DNA of 64,000 nucleotides from a phage, in the sequence record PZ452579.1, one strand, 5' to 3'. A program made the translations under genes and the position numbers. This document shows positions 7,695-61,658 of the stretch, piece after piece. Below the pieces are notes generated by a model that saw only the letters and a list, made by a program, of their open reading frames with translations, did no database searches and was not told the DNA's origin. The first letter of the stretch is position 1; the number at the start of each line of letters is the position of its first letter.

Positions 7695-7805
7695 TCATTT
7701 TACCATACTCGCTTCAATAAGATTCATTACACCATTTACCATGTTATACGTAAACATCGGATAATTGTATTGTACTACAACATAAGCAATAAGCAAAAGT
7801 TTCAT
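7695..7805 (-). CDS. small hydrophobic hypothetical peptide (36 aa)
   Basis: ATG with GGAG RBS; MKLLLIAYVVVQYNYPMFTYNMVNGVMNLIEASMVK; lies in a 270-nt gap; below ORF-track cut-off. Confidence 0.2.
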   Translation of the reverse strand: MKLLLIAYVVVQYNYPMFTYNMVNGVMNLIEASMVK

Positions 7806-7825
7806 TTTGTTCTCCGTTTGTTTTG

Positions 7826-7863
7826 GTAGGACTACTATAACATAGTCCTACCAAGATGTAAAC
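7826..7863 (-). promoter_or_regulatory. early-type promoter with perfect spacer palindrome
   Basis: GTTTAC-N18-TATAGT; palindrome GGTAGGACT...AGTCCTACC. Confidence 0.55.
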
Positions 7864-8099
7864 TACCGATTGTGTTTTAAATGTTGATAAAGTTCTTCAA
7901 CTTGTTTAGGGTCCAAAACAATTAAGTCATTTTCTTGGCGAAGATAAATCCATCCCTTATCCCCAGGGCCATTTTTACAAAACATCACTGCCGCCATATC
8001 ATCATCTTCAGCGCTTTCAGGTAAAAGTTCAAGTACACCGTCTTCAGATTTTCCAGTATAATCGTAAAGCATAATATCCTCACATAATCTCGTTAACAT
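7863..8099 (-). CDS. hypothetical protein
   Basis: 78-aa acidic ORF; promoter element at 7826-7863. Confidence 0.45.
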   Translation of the reverse strand: MLTRLCEDIMLYDYTGKSEDGVLELLPESAEDDDMAAVMFCKNGPGDKGWIYLRQENDLIVLDPKQVEELYQHLKHNR

Positions 8100-8325: not shown

Positions 8326-8354
8326 AAAAAAGCCCCAACCTTTCGGAAGGGGCT
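8326..8354 (-). terminator. intrinsic terminator (minus strand)
   Basis: AGCCCCTTCCGAAAGGTTGGGGC hairpin plus U-tract on minus strand, right after the stop of 8359..8916. Confidence 0.6.
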
Positions 8355-8949: not shown

Positions 8950-8976
8950 AAAAAGCCCCAACCTTTCGGAAGGGGC
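8950..8976 (-). terminator. intrinsic terminator (minus strand), identical copy
   Basis: Same hairpin plus U-tract after the rI stop. Confidence 0.6.
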
Positions 8977-8983
8977 AGGTAAA

Positions 8984-14468: not shown

Positions 14469-14798
14469 TTATACTCTAGGCTTTTGAGCTTGTTTGGTAT
14501 TGGATTCCCATGCGGCTTTGGTAATTTTGTTAGCGGCATAACCAAAGGCATTAGATAGAACACCTTTAGAGTTGAATACATCCAATCCAATAAGTACACC
14601 GGCTGTGTTAAATTTAGGAGCAAAGTACGCATTAGTTTTAGAAAGAGCTTTTTTCAATTCAGGGTCTTGAACCAAGCCATCAAAAACGCCTTTACTATTT
14701 ACTTTATATGTTACTTTGGGATTTTTACCTTCTTCGATAGCAGCTTTCTGTTCCGCAGATAATGTAACTTCAGTGATAAACTCTTGATACGTTTTCAT
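14469..14798 (-). CDS. internal-protein-like capsid-targeted protein
   Basis: 109-aa ORF beginning MKTYQEFITE (capsid-targeting sequence, predicted prohead-protease cut after Glu10). Confidence 0.75.
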   Translation of the reverse strand: MKTYQEFITEVTLSAEQKAAIEEGKNPKVTYKVNSKGVFDGLVQDPELKKALSKTNAYFAPKFNTAGVLIGLDVFNSKGVLSNAFGYAANKITKAAWESNTKQAQKPRV

Positions 14799-14823: not shown

Positions 14824-15138
14824 TTATTCTTTAGGGAAGTTTTTAGAGTATGCGTCATAAAGTTTATTACCGATGCGACGGAAGACTTTAGCTGCAAAAC
14901 GGTTTTCAGGGTTTTTAATCATGATTTGCATCATGTAAGTTCCTGCATCCGAAAGAGCTTCTTCGTAGTACCCATTAATTTCTTTAAGAGTCCTACGTTT
15001 ACCACCAGGACCATCAACAGTAATTTTCCATTTACCTGTAGAAGTGCGGCTCGGTGGCTCAACTTGTTCAATCCAAATATAACCACCTTCAACGCGTTGG
15101 TTGGCGGATTCTGCAATAAATTCTTTATATGTTTTCAT
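14824..15138 (-). CDS. internal-protein-like capsid-targeted protein
   Basis: 104-aa ORF beginning MKTYKEFIAE; promoter element upstream (15156-15199). Confidence 0.75.
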   Translation of the reverse strand: MKTYKEFIAESANQRVEGGYIWIEQVEPPSRTSTGKWKITVDGPGGKRRTLKEINGYYEEALSDAGTYMMQIMIKNPENRFAAKVFRRIGNKLYDAYSKNFPKE

Positions 15139-15202: not shown

Positions 15203-15463
15203 TTAAGCTTTACCGCCAGAAATAATTCCGAAGTTGTTAAAATCGTATCCAATATCGTCAACATCTACTTTAGGACTTACTACAACATAAGCAATTTCAC
15301 TACGTTTTGCATAGGTGTTGATTTCTTTACCATCGCCACCTAAGAAAGAATACCCATTACGTTTTAATGAGCCAAAGTCTTCCGCATCACCAATGAAAGC
15401 TTTAACTTTAAATTTGGGGTCTTTGGCATCTGCTTCAGCTATAAATTCTTGATACATTTTCAT
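15203..15463 (-). CDS. internal-protein-like capsid-targeted protein
   Basis: 86-aa ORF beginning MKMYQEFIAE. Confidence 0.7.
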   Translation of the reverse strand: MKMYQEFIAEADAKDPKFKVKAFIGDAEDFGSLKRNGYSFLGGDGKEINTYAKRSEIAYVVVSPKVDVDDIGYDFNNFGIISGGKA

Positions 15464-15941: not shown

Positions 15942-16238
15942 CTATTTTTCTGAAGCGCCTGAAATATATTTTTCAAGTCGTTGCTTCATTAGCGAGCCGT
16001 TCTTAGCGATTTCTTCCGGTTTATCGCACATACGTAACAAGGCTTCAAGCTTAGCGATATCGCTGGTACGTTCAAATTTGCGAGTATCTATCTTACTAGC
16101 AAGTTCAGAAATACGTGCTAATAGACTTTCGGCTTCAACCAAAGCTGCACCTAGCTTAGTTGCAAATGTGTCAGTAGCTTCGTTAAGAATAGATTCTGAT
16201 AAAAATTCACTATATGTTTTCATATATACGCTTTCCAA
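15942..16238 (-). CDS. internal-protein-like capsid-targeted protein (ipII/ipIII position)
   Basis: 98-aa ORF beginning [10 protein letters not shown]; immediately downstream of gene e. Confidence 0.7.
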
Positions 16239-18590: not shown

Positions 18591-18896
18591 TTATTTTCCT
18601 CGACATTCTTTAATGAAATTTTCTAGATTGGTAGATTCAATAGCTTTTTTACGAGCTTCTGCGTGTTCTTCTTCAGACAATTTACGTTTATAATTGACCC
18701 AGACATTATGGTCGAAACTAGTCGTGGCATATAATAACAAAGCTCCGACGAATAATAAAAACGGTGATAAGAATACAAAACCAGGAACACCATCCATACT
18801 GTAAGCCTTTTGTAATACTGCAACAGAAAGAGTTGCGTAAAAAAGTGATGCAAATATTGTTAAAAGACCAATTCGGTTGGTTTCGCCTAATTTCAT
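18591..18896 (-). CDS. predicted membrane protein
   Basis: 101-aa ORF with two hydrophobic helices. Confidence 0.5.
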   Translation of the reverse strand: MKLGETNRIGLLTIFASLFYATLSVAVLQKAYSMDGVPGFVFLSPFLLFVGALLLYATTSFDHNVWVNYKRKLSEEEHAEARKKAIESTNLENFIKECRGK

Positions 18897-18917
18897 AATA
18901 TTCTCCTCATGTTTTAA

Positions 18918-18954
18918 TAGGACTACTATAACATAATCCTATAATTGTGTAAAC
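18918..18954 (-). promoter_or_regulatory. early-type promoter element with near-palindromic spacer
   Basis: GTTTAC-N18-TATAGT; ATAGGACT...AATCCTAT. Confidence 0.5.
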
Positions 18955-18966
18955 AGTTTTGCGAAA

Positions 18967-19951: not shown

Positions 19952-20203
19952 TTAAATTTCACGACATGCGATATTATATTCATCCCAGAGGTCATCATGT
20001 GAAGCCTCTACCAATGGAACGATTGTACCGTTTATGTCTTCATTATAAGGGCAAATTGTACAGTGCGCATCTTCGAATCGGATGCCTTTGTGTTCAGATT
20101 TTTTATAACGCATATCGAATATCTTTGCAAACTTTTCACGAGTAATGGTTTTAGCAACCACTTCGGTTCCAATACTTTCGTAATAAATCATTGTGGACTC
20201 CAT
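19952..20203 (-). CDS. hypothetical protein
   Basis: 83-aa ORF with Cys/His residues. Confidence 0.45.
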   Translation of the reverse strand: MESTMIYYESIGTEVVAKTITREKFAKIFDMRYKKSEHKGIRFEDAHCTICPYNEDINGTIVPLVEASHDDLWDEYNIACREI

Positions 20204-20211
20204 TTAATTTG

Positions 20212-20249
20212 ATAGGACTACTATAACATAGCCCTATCTTGTTGTAAAC
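20212..20249 (-). promoter_or_regulatory. early-type promoter element with near-palindromic spacer
   Basis: GTTTAC-N18-TATAGT; GATAGGAC...GCCCTATC. Confidence 0.5.
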
Positions 20250-20253
20250 TGTT

Positions 20254-23067: not shown

Positions 23068-23109
23068 TTTGATGTGATTACTATAACATAAACTTACTTA
23101 GATGTAAAT
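23068..23109 (-). promoter_or_regulatory. early-type promoter element
   Basis: ATTTAC-N-TATAGT element of the TTGATGTGATTACTATAACATA type. Confidence 0.4.
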
Positions 23110-23262
23110 TATTTCAACGTCACCTTTAGCTGCTTTATAACCTTCAGCCCAAGATACAACAGAGTTTTTATCTGAGGATTCAAATTCAGGCATTGGACTT
23201 TCACCAATATTCACACAATATGTTTCTTCATTTTCATCGAACCAAATAATTAAAGTAGTCAT
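23098..23262 (-). CDS. small hypothetical protein (54 aa)
   Basis: ATG with GAGGAG RBS and early-promoter element upstream; MTTLIIWFDENEETYCVNIGESPMPEFESSDKNSVVSWAEGYKAAKGDVEIIYI; below ORF-track cut-off. Confidence 0.4.
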   Translation of the reverse strand: MTTLIIWFDENEETYCVNIGESPMPEFESSDKNSVVSWAEGYKAAKGDVEIIYI

Positions 23263-23280
23263 TTTGTTTACTCCTCTGTA

Positions 23281-23322
23281 GTTGATAAGTCTATAGTATC
23301 ACCATCCTTGGTGCTTGTACAT
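23281..23322 (-). promoter_or_regulatory. early-type promoter element (near-copy of 60301-60336)
   Basis: Shares the block GTTTACTCCTCTGTAGTTGATAAGTCTATAGTATCAC with the element near gene 24; spacer palindrome CACCA/TGGTG. Confidence 0.5.
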
Positions 23323-24194: not shown

Positions 24195-24758
24195 TTATTT
24201 ACCTAGTTTAGTTATTATAGCTTCGGCAGCAGCTTTTAGCTTAGATGCAGTGTTAATACGATTTTTAATTTCAGTATACGCATCGCCAAGAACATCAAGG
24301 CTATCAGAATAAACACTTACACTATTGCGTTCGCTATTTGAAATAGAACCTTTAGTTTTACGATCAAAATCAGTGTACACGTCTTGAAGATCACGGGCTG
24401 CCTTCTTTGCATCATCCAATGCATCAAGAGCTTTATTCAAAGCATTGACATATTTTTTAGTGTCAAACATATTCTTAGAAATTTTAACAGGTGCACGTTC
24501 AGGAGTAGCTAAGGCGGATTTAGGAACCTGCGTGCCAGATGCCAGTTTCTTAGAAATTTTGAAAAACGCTTTATTGAAACTATTTTCTTGTCTCATCGTA
24601 AAAGAACTAGTATCGATGTTATACATTTCAATAGCTTTAGCTTTCCACTTAAGAAAATCGCCGCGGTCTTTTGGATCCAAGTGGAAGAATACTTTAGTAA
24701 GATCTGCTTCAGATGGTAATTTTGCTGCTTCGGTTAAAAATTCGGCATAGGTTTTCAT
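24195..24758 (-). CDS. internal-protein-like capsid-targeted protein (IPIII-sized)
   Basis: 187-aa ORF beginning MKTYAEFLTE; terminator hairpin downstream. Confidence 0.7.
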   Translation of the reverse strand: MKTYAEFLTEAAKLPSEADLTKVFFHLDPKDRGDFLKWKAKAIEMYNIDTSSFTMRQENSFNKAFFKISKKLASGTQVPKSALATPERAPVKISKNMFDTKKYVNALNKALDALDDAKKAARDLQDVYTDFDRKTKGSISNSERNSVSVYSDSLDVLGDAYTEIKNRINTASKLKAAAEAIITKLGK

Positions 24759-24848: not shown

Positions 24849-24876
24849 AAAAAGCCCCAACCTTTCGGAAGGGGCT
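24849..24876 (-). terminator. intrinsic terminator (minus strand), identical copy, closing the tRNA/RNA region
   Basis: Same hairpin plus U-tract on minus strand. Confidence 0.65.
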
Positions 24877-26956: not shown

Positions 26957-27163
26957 TTACTCACCTTTTGCAATTTTATCCATAACAATAGCGATTAAAC
27001 CGATTAGAAATGCTACTACCAATGAGATAGAATTTTCTGTTGTTGTCAGTAGTCCACAAATGAATCCTACAAACATCGAAAAACTAAAAGCCATTGAAGC
27101 AATTACTACAGCAACATTACGAATCAGTTCAGCGCGTTTCATTTTATTTCTCCATTTACTCAT
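26957..27163 (-). CDS. small predicted membrane protein
   Basis: 68-aa ORF with two hydrophobic helices. Confidence 0.45.
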   Translation of the reverse strand: MSKWRNKMKRAELIRNVAVVIASMAFSFSMFVGFICGLLTTTENSISLVVAFLIGLIAIVMDKIAKGE

Positions 27164-27165
27164 TT

Positions 27166-27210
27166 GTTTTGATAGGACTACTATAACATATCCATATAGG
27201 CTTGTATACC
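27166..27210 (-). promoter_or_regulatory. early-type promoter element
   Basis: Conserved block TTGATAGGACTACTATAACATA with variant -35. Confidence 0.45.
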
Positions 27211-27211
27211 T

Positions 27212-27487
27212 TTATTTCAAATATATTGCGTATTTTTTATAGCCACCAGGCTCGTGTCGAAGACCTTTATCATTCGCAAAACGTTGAATGTTATTGAACT
27301 GATTTTCATCAAGTTCGGATGTGTCAAATATAAAAAAGTTTCGTTTGTTACCAAGCGTGATATGCGGAGTTAAGTCAATGTTATACAAATTAAGAATATC
27401 AGCAATAACCTGATTGACTGCTTTGTTAATTTTCACACCAGACGATTCTGAGATGAATTCGTTGAAAGTTTTCATTTTAGGTTCCAT
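27212..27487 (-). CDS. internal-protein-like capsid-targeted protein
   Basis: 91-aa ORF beginning MKTFNEFISE; promoter element upstream. Confidence 0.7.
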   Translation of the reverse strand: MEPKMKTFNEFISESSGVKINKAVNQVIADILNLYNIDLTPHITLGNKRNFFIFDTSELDENQFNNIQRFANDKGLRHEPGGYKKYAIYLK

Positions 27488-27496
27488 TTGGTTGTT

Positions 27497-27536
27497 TTGA
27501 TAGGACTACTATAACATAGTCCTACCATGATGTAAA
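27497..27536 (-). promoter_or_regulatory. early-type promoter with perfect spacer palindrome
   Basis: GTTTAC-N18-TATAGT; TAGGACTA...TAGTCCTA; near-identical to the 7826-7863 element. Confidence 0.55.
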
Positions 27537-27848
27537 CTATTTTATGCCTTTAGATGAAATAGTATTCTGGCGTTTGACCCCAGTTTGTGAAAAATCATGG
27601 TTATCAATTTGGTCAACTCGCATAACACCAAACGCAGATTTAATTTTGGCCTTTGAACCTTTTTTGATACTAATTACCATATAAGTATCATTTTTCTTAT
27701 ATTCGAAATTTGATACTTCAACGCCTTGATTAGAAATTGACTTAATAATAGCATTAGCGTATTCATCATCTAACGGGCCGTTAGTGTTAATAACAAAATT
27801 TTTATCCGCTTTAGTAGCTTCCGCGATGAATTCTTGATAGGTTTTCAT
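27537..27848 (-). CDS. ipI: internal protein I-like capsid-targeted protein
   Basis: 103-aa ORF beginning MKTYQEFIAE; adjacent to 57B as ipI in T4. Confidence 0.75.
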   Translation of the reverse strand: MKTYQEFIAEATKADKNFVINTNGPLDDEYANAIIKSISNQGVEVSNFEYKKNDTYMVISIKKGSKAKIKSAFGVMRVDQIDNHDFSQTGVKRQNTISSKGIK

Positions 27849-58380: not shown

Positions 58381-59949
58381 ATGACTACTATCAAAACTAA
58401 AGCTCAGCTCGTAGACAAATGGAAAGAACTGCTGGAAGGTGAAGGCCTGCCGGAAATCGCTAATAGCAAGCAGGCTATTATCGCTAAAATCTTCGAAAAC
58501 CAGGAAAAAGATTTCGAAGTATCCCCTGAATATAAAGACGAGAAAATCGCTCAGGCATTTGGTTCTTTCTTGACCGAAGCTGAAATTGGTGGTGACCACG
58601 GTTATAATGCTCAGAACATCGCAGCAGGTCAAACCTCTGGTGCAGTAACCCAAATTGGGCCGGCAGTTATGGGTATGGTTCGTCGTGCTATTCCTAATCT
58701 GATCGCTTTTGATATTTGTGGTGTTCAGCCTATGAACAGCCCTACCGGTCAGGTATTTGCTCTCCGTGCAGTATATGGTAAAGACCCTATCGCTGCTGGC
58801 GCTAAAGAAGCTTTCCATCCGATGTATGCTCCGGATGCAATGTTCTCTGGTCAGGGCGCTGCTAAGAAATTCCCAGCGCTGGCTGCTAGCACACAAACTA
58901 AAGTAGGTGATATTTATACTCACTTCTTCCAGGAAACTGGTACTGTATATCTGCAAGCTTCTGCTCAAGTAACAATTAGTTCAAGTGCTGATGATGCAGC
59001 TAAATTAGATGCAGAAATTATCAAACAAATGGAAGCTGGCGCACTGGTAGAAATCGCTGAAGGTATGGCTACTTCTATCGCTGAACTTCAGGAAGGCTTC
59101 AATGGTTCTACCGACAACCCGTGGAACGAAATGGGCTTCCGTATCGACAAACAAGTTATTGAAGCTAAATCTCGTCAGCTGAAAGCAGCTTACTCCATCG
59201 AATTGGCACAAGACCTCCGTGCAGTACACGGTATGGATGCTGATGCTGAACTGAGTGGTATTCTTGCTACTGAAATTATGCTGGAAATCAACCGTGAAGT
59301 TGTTGACTGGATTAACTACTCCGCTCAGGTTGGTAAATCCGGTATGACTAATATCGTTGGTTCTAAAGCTGGTGTATTTGACTTCCAGGACCCGATTGAT
59401 ATCCGTGGTGCTCGTTGGGCCGGTGAAAGCTTTAAAGCTCTGTTGTTCCAGATTGATAAAGAAGCAGTTGAAATTGCTCGTCAAACCGGTCGTGGTGAAG
59501 GTAACTTCATTATCGCTTCCCGTAACGTAGTTAACGTACTGGCTTCAGTTGATACTGGTATTTCTTACGCTGCACAGGGCCTGGCTTCTGGTTTTAATAC
59601 CGACACTACTAAGTCTGTATTTGCCGGTGTACTTGGTGGTAAATACCGCGTATACATCGACCAGTATGCTAAACAGGATTACTTCACCGTTGGTTACAAA
59701 GGCGCTAACGAAATGGATGCAGGTATTTACTATGCTCCTTACGTTGCACTTACCCCACTGCGTGGTTCCGATCCTAAGAACTTCCAGCCGGTAATGGGCT
59801 TTAAAACTCGTTATGGTATCGGTGTTAACCCGTTTGCTGAAAGTTCCCTGCAGGCTCCAGGTGCTCGCATCCAGTCCGGTATGCCGTCTATCCTGAACAG
59901 CCTTGGTAAGAACGCTTACTTTAGACGCGTCTACGTTAAAGGAATTTAA
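58381..59949 (+). CDS. 23: major capsid protein gp23
   Basis: 522-aa ORF; near-identical over long stretches to T4 gp23 as recalled. Confidence 0.98.
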   Translation: MTTIKTKAQLVDKWKELLEGEGLPEIANSKQAIIAKIFENQEKDFEVSPEYKDEKIAQAFGSFLTEAEIGGDHGYNAQNIAAGQTSGAVTQIGPAVMGMVRRAIPNLIAFDICGVQPMNSPTGQVFALRAVYGKDPIAAGAKEAFHPMYAPDAMFSGQGAAKKFPALAASTQTKVGDIYTHFFQETGTVYLQASAQVTISSSADDAAKLDAEIIKQMEAGALVEIAEGMATSIAELQEGFNGSTDNPWNEMGFRIDKQVIEAKSRQLKAAYSIELAQDLRAVHGMDADAELSGILATEIMLEINREVVDWINYSAQVGKSGMTNIVGSKAGVFDFQDPIDIRGARWAGESFKALLFQIDKEAVEIARQTGRGEGNFIIASRNVVNVLASVDTGISYAAQGLASGFNTDTTKSVFAGVLGGKYRVYIDQYAKQDYFTVGYKGANEMDAGIYYAPYVALTPLRGSDPKNFQPVMGFKTRYGIGVNPFAESSLQAPGARIQSGMPSILNSLGKNAYFRRVYVKGI

Positions 59950-59978
59950 TGCTTTAACGTTAAAATACATAACCTTAT

Positions 59979-60008
59979 GGGAGACTTCGGTCTCCCATTT
60001 TTGGTTTT
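59979..60008 (+). terminator. intrinsic terminator after gene 23
   Basis: Identical hairpin GGGAGACTTCGGTCTCCC followed by ATTTTTGGTTTT. Confidence 0.75.
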
Positions 60009-60276
60009 ATTTCTGCGCAATTTTGATGTAAGTTTTCAAAATATTTTGCCAATTAGGCATACCTTCTTGGACATATGCCGGAGAACCGTCTTTGTTTTTG
60101 AATGATGCAAGTTTATCAGTGGCCCAATAACCTTTAGCTCGAGCTTCAGAATCAACTTTCATCCATACTTTGTTGAAGGCATTACCATTAACTTTTGCAC
60201 CATATTTTTCTACTAACTTAACTGCTTCAGCTTCCAGAACTTTTAAAGTATCTCGTAAGAAACGTGCTTTAGTCAT
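60007..60276 (-). CDS. hypothetical protein encoded antisense to the late module, between genes 23 and 24
   Basis: 89-aa ORF (MTKARFLRDTLKVLEAEAVKLVEKYG...); GAGGAG RBS and early-promoter element at 60301-60336. Confidence 0.55.
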   Translation of the reverse strand: MTKARFLRDTLKVLEAEAVKLVEKYGAKVNGNAFNKVWMKVDSEARAKGYWATDKLASFKNKDGSPAYVQEGMPNWQNILKTYIKIAQK

Positions 60277-60300
60277 TTTGTTTACTCCTCTGTAGTTGAT

Positions 60301-60336
60301 AAGTCTATAGTATCACATACCAAATACGTTGTAAAC
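60301..60336 (-). promoter_or_regulatory. early-type promoter element driving the antisense ORF between genes 23 and 24
   Basis: GTTTAC-N18-TACTAT/TATAGA plus GAGGAG RBS. Confidence 0.5.
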
Positions 60337-60342
60337 AATCTT

Positions 60343-60350
60343 TATAAATA
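60343..60350 (+). promoter_or_regulatory. late promoter (TATAAATA) for gene 24
   Basis: TATAAATA 35 nt upstream of the gene 24 ATG. Confidence 0.65.
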
Positions 60351-60377
60351 ATCTATATCACATAAGGAAAAAATGCA

Positions 60378-61658
60378 ATGAGTAAAATCCAAAAATTATT
60401 GCGTGAATCTACAACGTCTACTAGCAACTCAATTGGTCGCCCAAATCTCGTTGCTTTGACTCGCGCTACGACTAAATTAATATATTCTGACATTGTAGCA
60501 ACACAAAGAACTAATCAACCTGTTGCTGCTTTTTATGGTATCAAATATCTTAACCCAGATAACGAATTCACATTTAAAACTGGTGCTACTTATGCGGGTG
60601 AAGCTGGATATGTAGACCGAGAAAAAATTACTGATCTCACAGAAGAATCAAAAGTCGCACTAAATAAAGGCGATTTTTTCAAATATAATAATATCGTCTA
60701 TAAAGTGTTAGAAGATACACCATTTGCAGATATTCAAGAAAGTGATCTAGAATTAGCTCTTCAGATTGCAGTCGTTCATTTAAAGGTACGGTTGTTTTCA
60801 GATGCAGCGGTAACAAGCAAATTTGAAAGCTCTGGTAGCGAAATTTCTGATGCAAGATTCCAGATTAATAAATGGCAAACTTCAGTCAAATCTCGTAAAC
60901 TTAAAACCGGCCTCACGGTTGAATTAGCGCAAGATTTGGAAGCGAATGGATTTGATGCCCCTAACTTCTTAGAAGATTTGCTTGCAACTGAAATGGCAGA
61001 TGAAATTAATAAAGATATTCTTCAGTCTTTAATTACTGTATCGAAACGTTATAAAGTTACTGGAATTACTGACACCGGATTTATTGACTTGAGCTATGCA
61101 TCCGCTCCAGAAGCAGGTCGTTCATTATATCGAATGGTGTGTGAAATGGTATCACACATTCAAAAAGAGACAACTTATACTGCAACGTTTTGTGTAGCCT
61201 CAGCTCGTGCAGCTGCTATTCTTGCTGCTTCTGGTTGGTTAAAACATAAGCCAGAAGATGACAAGTATCTTTCACAAAATGCTTATGGATTCTTGGCAAA
61301 TGGGTTACCTCTTTACTGCGATACCAACAGTCCGTTAGATTATGTTGTTGTGGGTGTTGTAGAAAATATCGGCGAAAAAGAAATTGTAGGGTCCATCTTT
61401 TATGCTCCATACACTGAAGGAGTAGATTTAGATGACCCGGAACATGTTGGTGCATTTAAAGTTGTAGTTGATCCAGAAAGCTTGCAACCGTCTATCGGAT
61501 TATTGGTTAGATATGCTTTATCAGCAAATCCTTACACAGTAGCAAAAGATGAAAAAGAAGCGAGAATAATTGATGGCGGGGACATGGATAAAATGGCAGG
61601 ACGTTCAGACTTGTCTGTTTTACTCGGTGTTAAATTGCCTAAAATTATTATAGATTAA
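60378..61658 (+). CDS. 24: capsid vertex protein gp24
   Basis: 426-aa ORF MSKIQKLLRESTTSTSNSIGRPNL...; late promoter 35 nt upstream. Confidence 0.97.
   Translation: MSKIQKLLRESTTSTSNSIGRPNLVALTRATTKLIYSDIVATQRTNQPVAAFYGIKYLNPDNEFTFKTGATYAGEAGYVDREKITDLTEESKVALNKGDFFKYNNIVYKVLEDTPFADIQESDLELALQIAVVHLKVRLFSDAAVTSKFESSGSEISDARFQINKWQTSVKSRKLKTGLTVELAQDLEANGFDAPNFLEDLLATEMADEINKDILQSLITVSKRYKVTGITDTGFIDLSYASAPEAGRSLYRMVCEMVSHIQKETTYTATFCVASARAAAILAASGWLKHKPEDDKYLSQNAYGFLANGLPLYCDTNSPLDYVVVGVVENIGEKEIVGSIFYAPYTEGVDLDDPEHVGAFKVVVDPESLQPSIGLLVRYALSANPYTVAKDEKEARIIDGGDMDKMAGRSDLSVLLGVKLPKIIID

Follow-up and report, generated by a model that had tools for sequence, protein, structure and literature searches.

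An early-type, probably accessory gene on the antisense strand of the capsid 23-24 spacer in an RB69-like phage of the T4 type

The 23-24 spacer

The DNA analyzed here, called the window below, is a stretch of 64,000 nucleotides from a phage (PZ452579.1). Its source is an RB69-like T4-type phage of the genus Mosigvirus, and the 501 bases around the open reading frame (ORF) discussed here are 99.0-99.6% identical to those of about a dozen Mosigvirus isolates. The features that matter for what follows are these:

58381-59949, + strand: gene 23, major capsid protein, left flank
59977-59998: gene 23 terminator hairpin ATGGGAGACTTCGGTCTCCCAT, with its T-run on the + strand
60007-60276, - strand: 89-amino acid ORF, ATG start, family phrog_6003, product of 10.1 kDa and pI 9.8
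60285-60290, - strand: Shine-Dalgarno (SD) sequence GAGGAG, 8 nt 5' of the ORF ATG
60307-60336, - strand: early-type sigma-70 promoter, with -35 GTTTAC at 60336-60331 and extended -10 TG-A-TACTAT at 60315-60307
60270-60316, - strand: 47-nt block, copy at the 89-amino acid ORF, an exact repeat of 23256-23302
60343-60350, + strand: gene 24 late promoter TATAAATA
60378-61658, + strand: gene 24, capsid vertex protein, right flank
23256-23302, - strand: second copy of the 47-nt block, at the head of a 54-amino acid ORF (23098-23262)

An earlier note on this DNA had described an antisense 89-amino acid ORF in the 23-24 spacer, with its own GTTTAC element and GAGGAG ribosome binding site, set between the terminator of gene 23 and the late promoter of gene 24; each of these is found where it was placed. 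Read on the minus strand, the region upstream of the ORF is TTATTTATAAAGATT-GTTTAC-AACGTATTTGGTATG-TG-A-TACTAT-AGACTTATCAACTACA-GAGGAG-TAAACAAA-ATG. The 3' end of the ORF meets the gene 23 terminator hairpin, which is followed on the + strand by TTTTTGGTTTT. Thus, the reading of this ORF as an early-type antisense gene with its own sigma-70 promoter and SD sequence, flanked by the late promoter of gene 24 on one side and the terminator of gene 23 on the other, is upheld.

Conservation and distribution of the 89-amino acid gene

The ORF is a real gene, which is conserved, syntenic, and under purifying selection. Residues 1-89 align with positions 1-90 of the 90-position phrog_6003 profile (E 2.9e-45). 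A comparison of the 23-24 spacer across T-even genomes and a homolog search with the 89-amino acid product had both been proposed as checks. By tblastn, the ORF is present in 240 phage records, in 238 of them with at least 80% coverage. The identities fall into two groups: ~121 records at 90-100%, which are Mosigvirus, and 119 at 31-37%, which are the JS98-like Dhakavirus and the VR7-like Gaprivervirus. In all three genera, the ORF always occupies the 23-24 slot and is antisense to the capsid genes. JS98 orf173, VR7ORF190c, and RB69ORF188c plus 189c are the same gene as the window ORF, in the same slot and on the same strand. Metagenomic relatives (P0004, P0005, and P0006, at 61-71% identity, and P0016) occupy this slot as well. 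Over the informative pairs, omega is ~0.04-0.16: the window and P0004 give pN 0.19 and pS 0.70, P0004 and P0005 give an omega of ~0.04, and JS98 and phage 04086 give 0.14.

These findings do not agree with the word "inserted," by which the earlier note implied a recent arrival. Synteny of the ORF with its -35 element and the divergent late promoter extends over three genera and several metagenomic lineages, with protein identities down to 31-37%. Judged from these alignments, the ORF is an old resident of a slot that itself varies between phages.

The gene is not found intact everywhere. In the RB69 reference, it is split into ORF188c and ORF189c by two 1-nt indels and a cluster of substitutions (AY303349 109291-109531; locus L010, 2792-3032); these frameshifts may be sequencing errors from 2003 or may represent real decay in the laboratory strain. 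The intact 89-amino acid form is found in nearly all other Mosigvirus genomes, and truncated forms occur in a few records (P0007, P0015, and P0003). Given the empty slot of RB14, the broken copy in the RB69 reference, and these truncated forms, the gene appears to be dispensable. Outside the T-even phages, members of the family are found in ABPH49, an Acinetobacter phage, and in two phage contigs from metagenomes, where one member lies among small early-type ORFs and the other beside tail genes; a spread of this kind, as far as sequence relationships can indicate, is typical of a mobile accessory gene.

The gene is already known: >200 genomes list it as a hypothetical protein, and the predictions of its promoter and of the neighboring elements for RB69 date from 2006; the finding in itself thus matters little. 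What is added below concerns how the slot varies, how its promoter region has been altered, and when the gene is likely to be expressed.

Back-to-back early and late promoters

A promoter scan identifies TTTACA, a 17-nt spacer, and TACTAT preceded by TG, with 9 of 12 matches, although such hits are about as frequent in shuffled sequence (2 found versus a mean of 1.8). The sequence elements of a T4-type early promoter are all present in the proper orientation: the -35, a spacer of 17±1 nt, an extended -10 of the form TGnTAnnnT, and an A/T-rich upstream stretch, which here is ATTATTTATAAAGATT. The leader is ~24 nt long and contains a strong SD sequence. The -35 element lies back-to-back with the gene 24 late promoter TATAAATA, with 6 nt (60337-60342) between them, and the A/T-rich stretch 5' of the -35 is the reverse complement of this late promoter. 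Consequently, the late-promoter sequence would occupy the position of an UP element for the early promoter. The segment 60330-60337 (TTGTTTAC), which holds the -35, and 60277-60284 (GTAAACAA), the gap between SD and ATG, are also perfect inverted repeats of each other over 8 bp; their starts are 53 nt apart, and 45 nt separate the arms. This is probably a coincidence (folding test z -1.1).

The 23-24 spacers of six lineages were aligned for a comparison of the promoters. The block TTTATTTATAAA(A/G)(G/A)T-TGTTTACA, which contains the gene 24 late promoter and the antisense -35, is kept in this alignment, with a single deviating -35 base in the metagenomic locus L005 (GTGTAC). A -10-like hexamer (TACTAT, TATTAT, or CATAAT) is present at equal spacing in all six lineages, while the bases between the conserved elements and the leader differ. 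Since position is kept in six lineages while the intervening bases and the leader have diverged, the two divergent promoters are ancestral to the slot.

The same arrangement had been predicted for RB69 by Nolan et al. 2006 (PMC1524935), who listed an early promoter, Pe:109605 (109555-109605, minus strand, HMM score 29.9), a late promoter, Pl:109573 (109573-109615, plus strand), and a terminator labelled "23-><-RB69ORF188c." These three predictions map onto the window's early promoter, gene 24 late promoter, and gene 23 hairpin, respectively. The RB69 reference differs from the window in its split ORF, which is intact in the window, and in three substitutions within the 47-nt block.

It could be argued that the sigma-70-like match is fortuitous in AT-rich DNA and that the gene is expressed at middle or late times, or is decaying and heading for loss. 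The result of the scan against shuffled sequence is compatible with this idea, as are the broken copies in the RB69 reference and in a few other records. However, a chance match would not be expected to keep its -35, its spacing, and its -10 position across lineages in which the intervening bases have diverged, and 238 of 240 records with at least 80% coverage speak against decay. As for middle or late expression, direct reading of the minus strand upstream of the ORF finds neither TATAAATA nor a MotA box TGCTT in the right orientation, and the colinear promoter of T4, described next, drives early RNA. Thus, we consider this possibility very unlikely.

The T4 segD promoter and the timing of expression

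In T4, the slot is occupied by segD, on the same antisense strand and without the ORF. Upstream of T4 segD lie TTTACA, a 17-nt spacer, and TG-A-TATTAT, with 10 of 12 matches (locus L004, 254-282; NC_000866 ~107253-107281, minus strand). This promoter is colinear with the early promoter of the window and, like it, lies directly next to the gene 24 late promoter. A 2010 review found no segD-specific promoter and expected vanishingly low transcripts. Yet in time-resolved T4 data (supplements of PMC9697503), segD is classed as an early RNA and a middle protein, and SegD peptides were quantified. Taken together, these observations suggest that T4 segD, reviewed as promoterless, lies behind a conserved early promoter, which agrees with its early RNA class. 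It was also noticed that the annotated T4 SegD begins with an MFK extension, which precedes a Met that aligns with residue 1 of the ortholog in phage LF82-9; the true SegD start may be the second ATG.

As a known system, the T4 segD locus therefore resembles the window in slot, in antisense orientation, in having a colinear promoter of the sigma-70 type that diverges from the late promoter of gene 24, and in ending at the gene 23 terminator. It differs in its cargo, which is unrelated: SegD, a 223-amino acid free-standing homing endonuclease of the GIY-YIG type, as opposed to an 89-amino acid protein without a nuclease motif.

No transcript data for Mosigvirus were found in the literature; one relevant preprint chose its early genes by homology to T4 only, and the ORF fell outside its selection. 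Early timing for the 89-amino acid gene is inferred from the promoter consensus and from the analogy to T4 segD, and the gene is probably switched on early in infection. The 89-amino acid protein would thus be an early-gene candidate of the sort that T4-homology screens for early genes miss.

The gene 23 terminator seen from the antisense side

In the direction of the ORF, the stem of the gene 23 hairpin folds with -17.7 kcal/mol and is followed by AUAAGGUUAUG, which lacks a U-run. Because of this, leaky termination of the antisense transcript at the hairpin is likely. The hairpins of VR7 and VR20 carry a T-run on this side as well. An Rfam scan of the 23-24 spacer gave nothing meaningful.

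Leaky termination raises the question of whether the RNA rather than the protein is the selected feature. Anti-late RNA arising from early transcription of T4 late regions is classical knowledge, and an antisense RNA against gene 23 mRNA could dampen premature or leaky capsid expression, with the ORF as a mere passenger. Read-through into gene 23 antisense is plausible given the hairpin and the missing U-run, and the promoter has been retained in T4 despite a different cargo, segD. For a passenger, however, the purifying selection, the invariant residues, and the confident predicted fold of the protein would be unexpected. In addition, RB14 is viable with neither promoter nor ORF in this slot, and in VR7 and VR20, termination would be expected at the hairpin. 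These considerations make a selected antisense RNA quite unlikely as the explanation for this locus.

A 47-nt promoter block shared with RB69ORF145c

The earlier note had also claimed that the promoter shares a block of ~37 nt with an element at 23270-23310. Such a shared block is real, but its size and position required correction: the identity is exact over 47 nt, at 23256-23302. All other exact direct repeats in the 64-kb window are at most 28 nt long, and none of 100 dinucleotide-preserving shuffles gave a match of this kind. The block comprises the extended -10, the 5' UTR, the SD sequence, and the ATG plus the next 4 nt. The -35 element lies outside it and differs at the two loci (GTTTAC at the 60-kb locus versus TGTACA at the 23-kb locus). 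The 54-amino acid ORF at 23098-23262 belongs to the RB69ORF145c/RB14ncORF134c family and lies in the e.8-frd.3 cluster of small early genes; an early promoter before RB69ORF145c, Pe:72567, was predicted by Nolan et al. 2006 (PMC1524935). A similar general layout recurs at many other early promoters of the window, but their identity to the block is only 61-77%.

Across sequence records, the block is found at 227 places in 142 records; consequently, ~85 records would carry two copies, with at most one in each of the rest. In the RB69 reference, the ORF145c copy is identical to that of the window, and the three substitutions noted above are confined to the 23-24 copy.

Several comparisons bear on the history of the block. 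The closest 23-24 relatives, P0004, P0005, and P0006, have the same GTTTAC but a different -10 and UTR, and where Mosigvirus has TGATACTATAGACTTATCAACTACAGAGGAG, the leaders of these three and of P0016 read TGTTATTAT(G/C)(C/T)TT(C/T)TA. When the block is aligned with gaps to the region upstream of ORF134c in RB14, a Tequatrovirus, 42 of 47 positions agree; for the orthologous 23-24 upstream regions of other lineages, the count is 33-36 of 47, which is the background for any early cassette. The JS98 UTR likewise resembles the general cassette consensus. Furthermore, ATG-ACT is the native start in the ORF145c family (ATGACTACT in both genera), while most other ORFs in the 23-24 slot start with MNK or MKK; P0004 starts with MTK on a different leader.

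From these comparisons, it looks as though the ancestor of Mosigvirus already had the gene and a 47-nt patch then replaced its sequence between the -10 and codon 3. The 23-kb copy at the RB69ORF145c locus was probably the source, a direction of copying that rests on gapped identity counts over a short segment. If so, the locus would provide a clean example of a regulatory patch of 47 nt copied between distant early genes. The proposal that the gene "arrived by recombination between promoter cassettes" does not fit these comparisons, in which the block is specific to Mosigvirus and replaces only the -10 to codon 3. Arrival of the gene together with the 47-nt cassette was considered separately and is rejected, as both the ORF and the -35 are older than the block.

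A variable slot and its recombination junctions

Four states of the 23-24 slot are observed: empty, segD alone, the ORF alone, and the ORF plus segD. In RB14, the spacer is 82 nt and consists only of the terminator and the late promoter, without the ORF or the early promoter. T4 has segD alone. The ORF without segD is found in the window, RB69, JS98, VR7, and G28. In IME08, ATK47, JK45, and the LF82 series, the ORF is followed, after a gap of 3 nt and on the same strand, by the gene for a SegD ortholog (57% amino acid identity to T4 SegD over its full length); examples are LF82-9 (locus L022, 2040-2969), IME08 (L025, 916-1872), and locus L023. A slot with four states within an otherwise rigid block of capsid genes, with recombination junctions that can be mapped, is of modest value.

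The distribution of the ORF does not track that of the capsid genes, because gp23 and gp24 of the window resemble those of RB14 (95% identity), in which the slot is empty, more than those of JS98 (84% for gp23 and 69% for gp24). The number of gene 24 copies in these genomes also varies. The gene is present as a tandem pair (24a/24b) in the lineages of Dhakavirus and Gaprivervirus as well as in two metagenomic contigs, L005 and L014 (loci L002, L005, L007, and L014), and as a single copy in the window, RB69, T4, LF82-9, and P0005 (locus L019).

Two genomes show how the slot has changed. G28 (MG867727; locus L028, 1340-1880) is a Tequatrovirus by taxonomy, and the ends of its genes 23 and 24 are of the RB14 type, but its spacer is completely of the JS98 type, with an ORF that has 98.9% amino acid identity to that of JS98. 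The junctions fall at the gene 24 start and ribosome binding site (CATTGCGCTTTCCTT) and at the 3' end of gene 23 (TTAGATACCTTTAAC). By this pattern of sequence identity, the G28 spacer is a cross-genus swap by homologous recombination in the conserved flanks, and the idea that cassettes drive the movement of the gene finds no support here, with both crossovers inside the coding ends of the flanking capsid genes. The second genome, LF82-9, is a Mosigvirus whose upstream sequence matches that of the window exactly up to the SD sequence GAGGAG and then gives way to JS98-type sequence, ORF allele, and segD. Of the two cases, one supports recombination at cassettes, as the earlier note envisaged, in that the LF82-9 crossover lies exactly at the SD sequence; the G28 junctions lie outside the cassettes. 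The LF82-9 pattern suggests SegD-linked co-conversion across genera.

Given this linkage, the ORF itself might be tied to SegD, as its landing or target gene, as a partner, or as an immunity factor, and the segD-less allele of the window would then be the recipient form. The SegD ortholog 3 nt after the ORF stop in IME08, ATK47, LF82-x, and JK45 would be served by the ORF promoter, and in LF82-9, the ORF allele linked to segD is of the foreign JS98 type, as co-conversion would give. On the other hand, the majority of genomes with the ORF have no segD, segD is present in T4 without the ORF, and distant family members in unrelated phages have no endonuclease nearby. T4 SegD reportedly does not drive homing of its own gene. 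Finally, the target of SegD is listed as unknown (PMC2988022). A dedicated link to SegD is therefore judged improbable.

The product of the gene

Across the family, 16 residues are invariant, including an N30-G31-N32-A33 loop, W51, and Q70. The AlphaFold2 model (pLDDT 87) predicts a helix at residues 3-25, a helix at 31-48, a beta-hairpin at 56-70, and a helix at 76-88. Searches for a function with the 89-amino acid protein gave little. Pfam returned only a sub-threshold match to DUF4859 (PF16151; 17.9 bits versus a gathering cut-off of 22.6, E 0.0029), NCBIfam had no match, the PADLOC anti-defence and defence models gave 0 families at E up to 1, and a PDB sequence profile search gave nothing below E 0.1. 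Three fold searches (PDB, BFVD) recovered only generic helical bundles or a family member. A deep HMM search of 1.84 billion representatives retrieved only family members and artefacts, without remote homologs; the artefacts were spurious repeat-protein matches (P0017 and P0020) and a chimera (P0021).

A remnant of a Seg-type or other homing endonuclease was considered and rejected: there is no GIY-YIG motif, no Pfam or NCBIfam nuclease match, and no resemblance to SegD, which is encoded by a gene of its own in the phages that have both. Judging from gene context and sequence, the product is likely to be an early accessory protein; we place no confidence in any specific target for it.

Comparison with PeSL cassettes and small early genes

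The closest known mechanism is the shuffling of PeSL-type cassettes (PMC2839356; Comeau et al. 2014, PMC4122927), to which the resemblance is functional only. As in PeSL cassettes, an early promoter with A/T-rich upstream sequence, an SD sequence, and a start codon precede an ORFan inside a conserved virion module; in both cases, the cassette is common to distant loci, and in LF82-9 it has served as a recombination joint. The cases differ in that the promoter of the window ORF has no stem-loop, the gene moved via homology in the flanking capsid genes, and only a 47-nt patch was exchanged. The DNA fold of 60277-60360 (minus strand) gives -5.5 kcal/mol with a z of -1.09, and 26 of 200 shuffles are as good; as a positive control, 7802-7885 (minus strand) folds into a 12-bp stem with a z of -3.44. 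Thus, while the sigma-70-like promoter, the A/T-rich upstream sequence, the SD sequence, and the start codon before an ORFan are all present, strict membership in the PeSL class is rejected for lack of the stem-loop.

PeSL-like cassettes are nevertheless part of this RB69-type genome: early promoters with a 10-12-bp stem-loop (GGTAGGACTA...TAGTCCTACC) over the -10 are located at 7802-7864, 18893-18955, 20188-20250, 27148-27210, and 27476-27538, all on the minus strand.

The window ORF also resembles the small early ORFs in hyperplastic regions of T4-type phages, such as those of the e.x and frd.x clusters and RB69ORF145c, in its size, its early-promoter architecture, its dispensability, and its patchy distribution, and it has the identical 47-nt leader in common with RB69ORF145c. 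Unlike the e.x and frd.x ORFs, it lies not in an early-gene cluster but alone in the late capsid gene cluster, on the opposite strand.

A model for the locus

Taken together, these results have led to the following model, which we regard as the probable explanation. The ORF would be a small, non-essential accessory gene of the phrog_6003 family that occupies the variable 23-24 slot of RB69-, JS98-, and VR7-like T4-type phages and is expressed early. Its transcription by host sigma-70 RNA polymerase would begin at a T4-early-type promoter within the first few minutes of infection, with the A/T-rich sequence of the late promoter serving at the UP-element position, and the transcript would reach the gene 23 terminator hairpin from the wrong side. 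The basic 10-kDa product, modeled as three helices and a beta-hairpin, would most likely bind to a partner from the host or the phage, like many small T4 early proteins. The conserved NGNA/W51/Q70 surface would make the contact, and a conditional advantage would result. Turnover of the slot would occur by homologous recombination between co-infecting relatives, probably aided in some lineages by the SegD homing endonuclease encoded directly downstream. In Mosigvirus, a 47-nt patch from the RB69ORF145c early cassette would have overwritten the segment from the -10 to codon 3.

A more far-reaching version can be imagined. The divergent promoter module and the one-sided terminator would together constitute a landing pad in the capsid operon, and any cargo that arrives there, whether the phrog_6003 ORF, segD, or both, would be expressed early, with read-through antisense to the major capsid mRNA. 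The phrog_6003 protein would be an early factor for host takeover or inter-phage competition, whose allele is driven between genera by SegD co-conversion. We consider this larger scheme, taken as a whole, to be speculative and rather unlikely.

Other repeats in the window

A terminator-like hairpin, AAAAAGCCCCAACCTTTCGGAAGGGGCT, is present in three near-identical copies (27-28 nt exact) in the early-gene region, at 8327-8354, 8950-8977, and 24849-24876. In addition, seven small ORFs open with a similar 32-nt segment (ATGAAAAC.TATCAAGAATTTAT.GC.GAA.C, approximately M-K-T-Y-x-E-F...), which on the minus strand begins the ORFs at these positions:

14767-14798, - strand: 32-nt ORF start
15107-15138, - strand: 32-nt ORF start
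15432-15463, - strand: 32-nt ORF start
16192-16223, - strand: 32-nt ORF start
24727-24758, - strand: 32-nt ORF start
27444-27475, - strand: 32-nt ORF start
27817-27848, - strand: 32-nt ORF start

The similarity of these openings suggests that the seven ORFs may represent a paralogous family of small early proteins.
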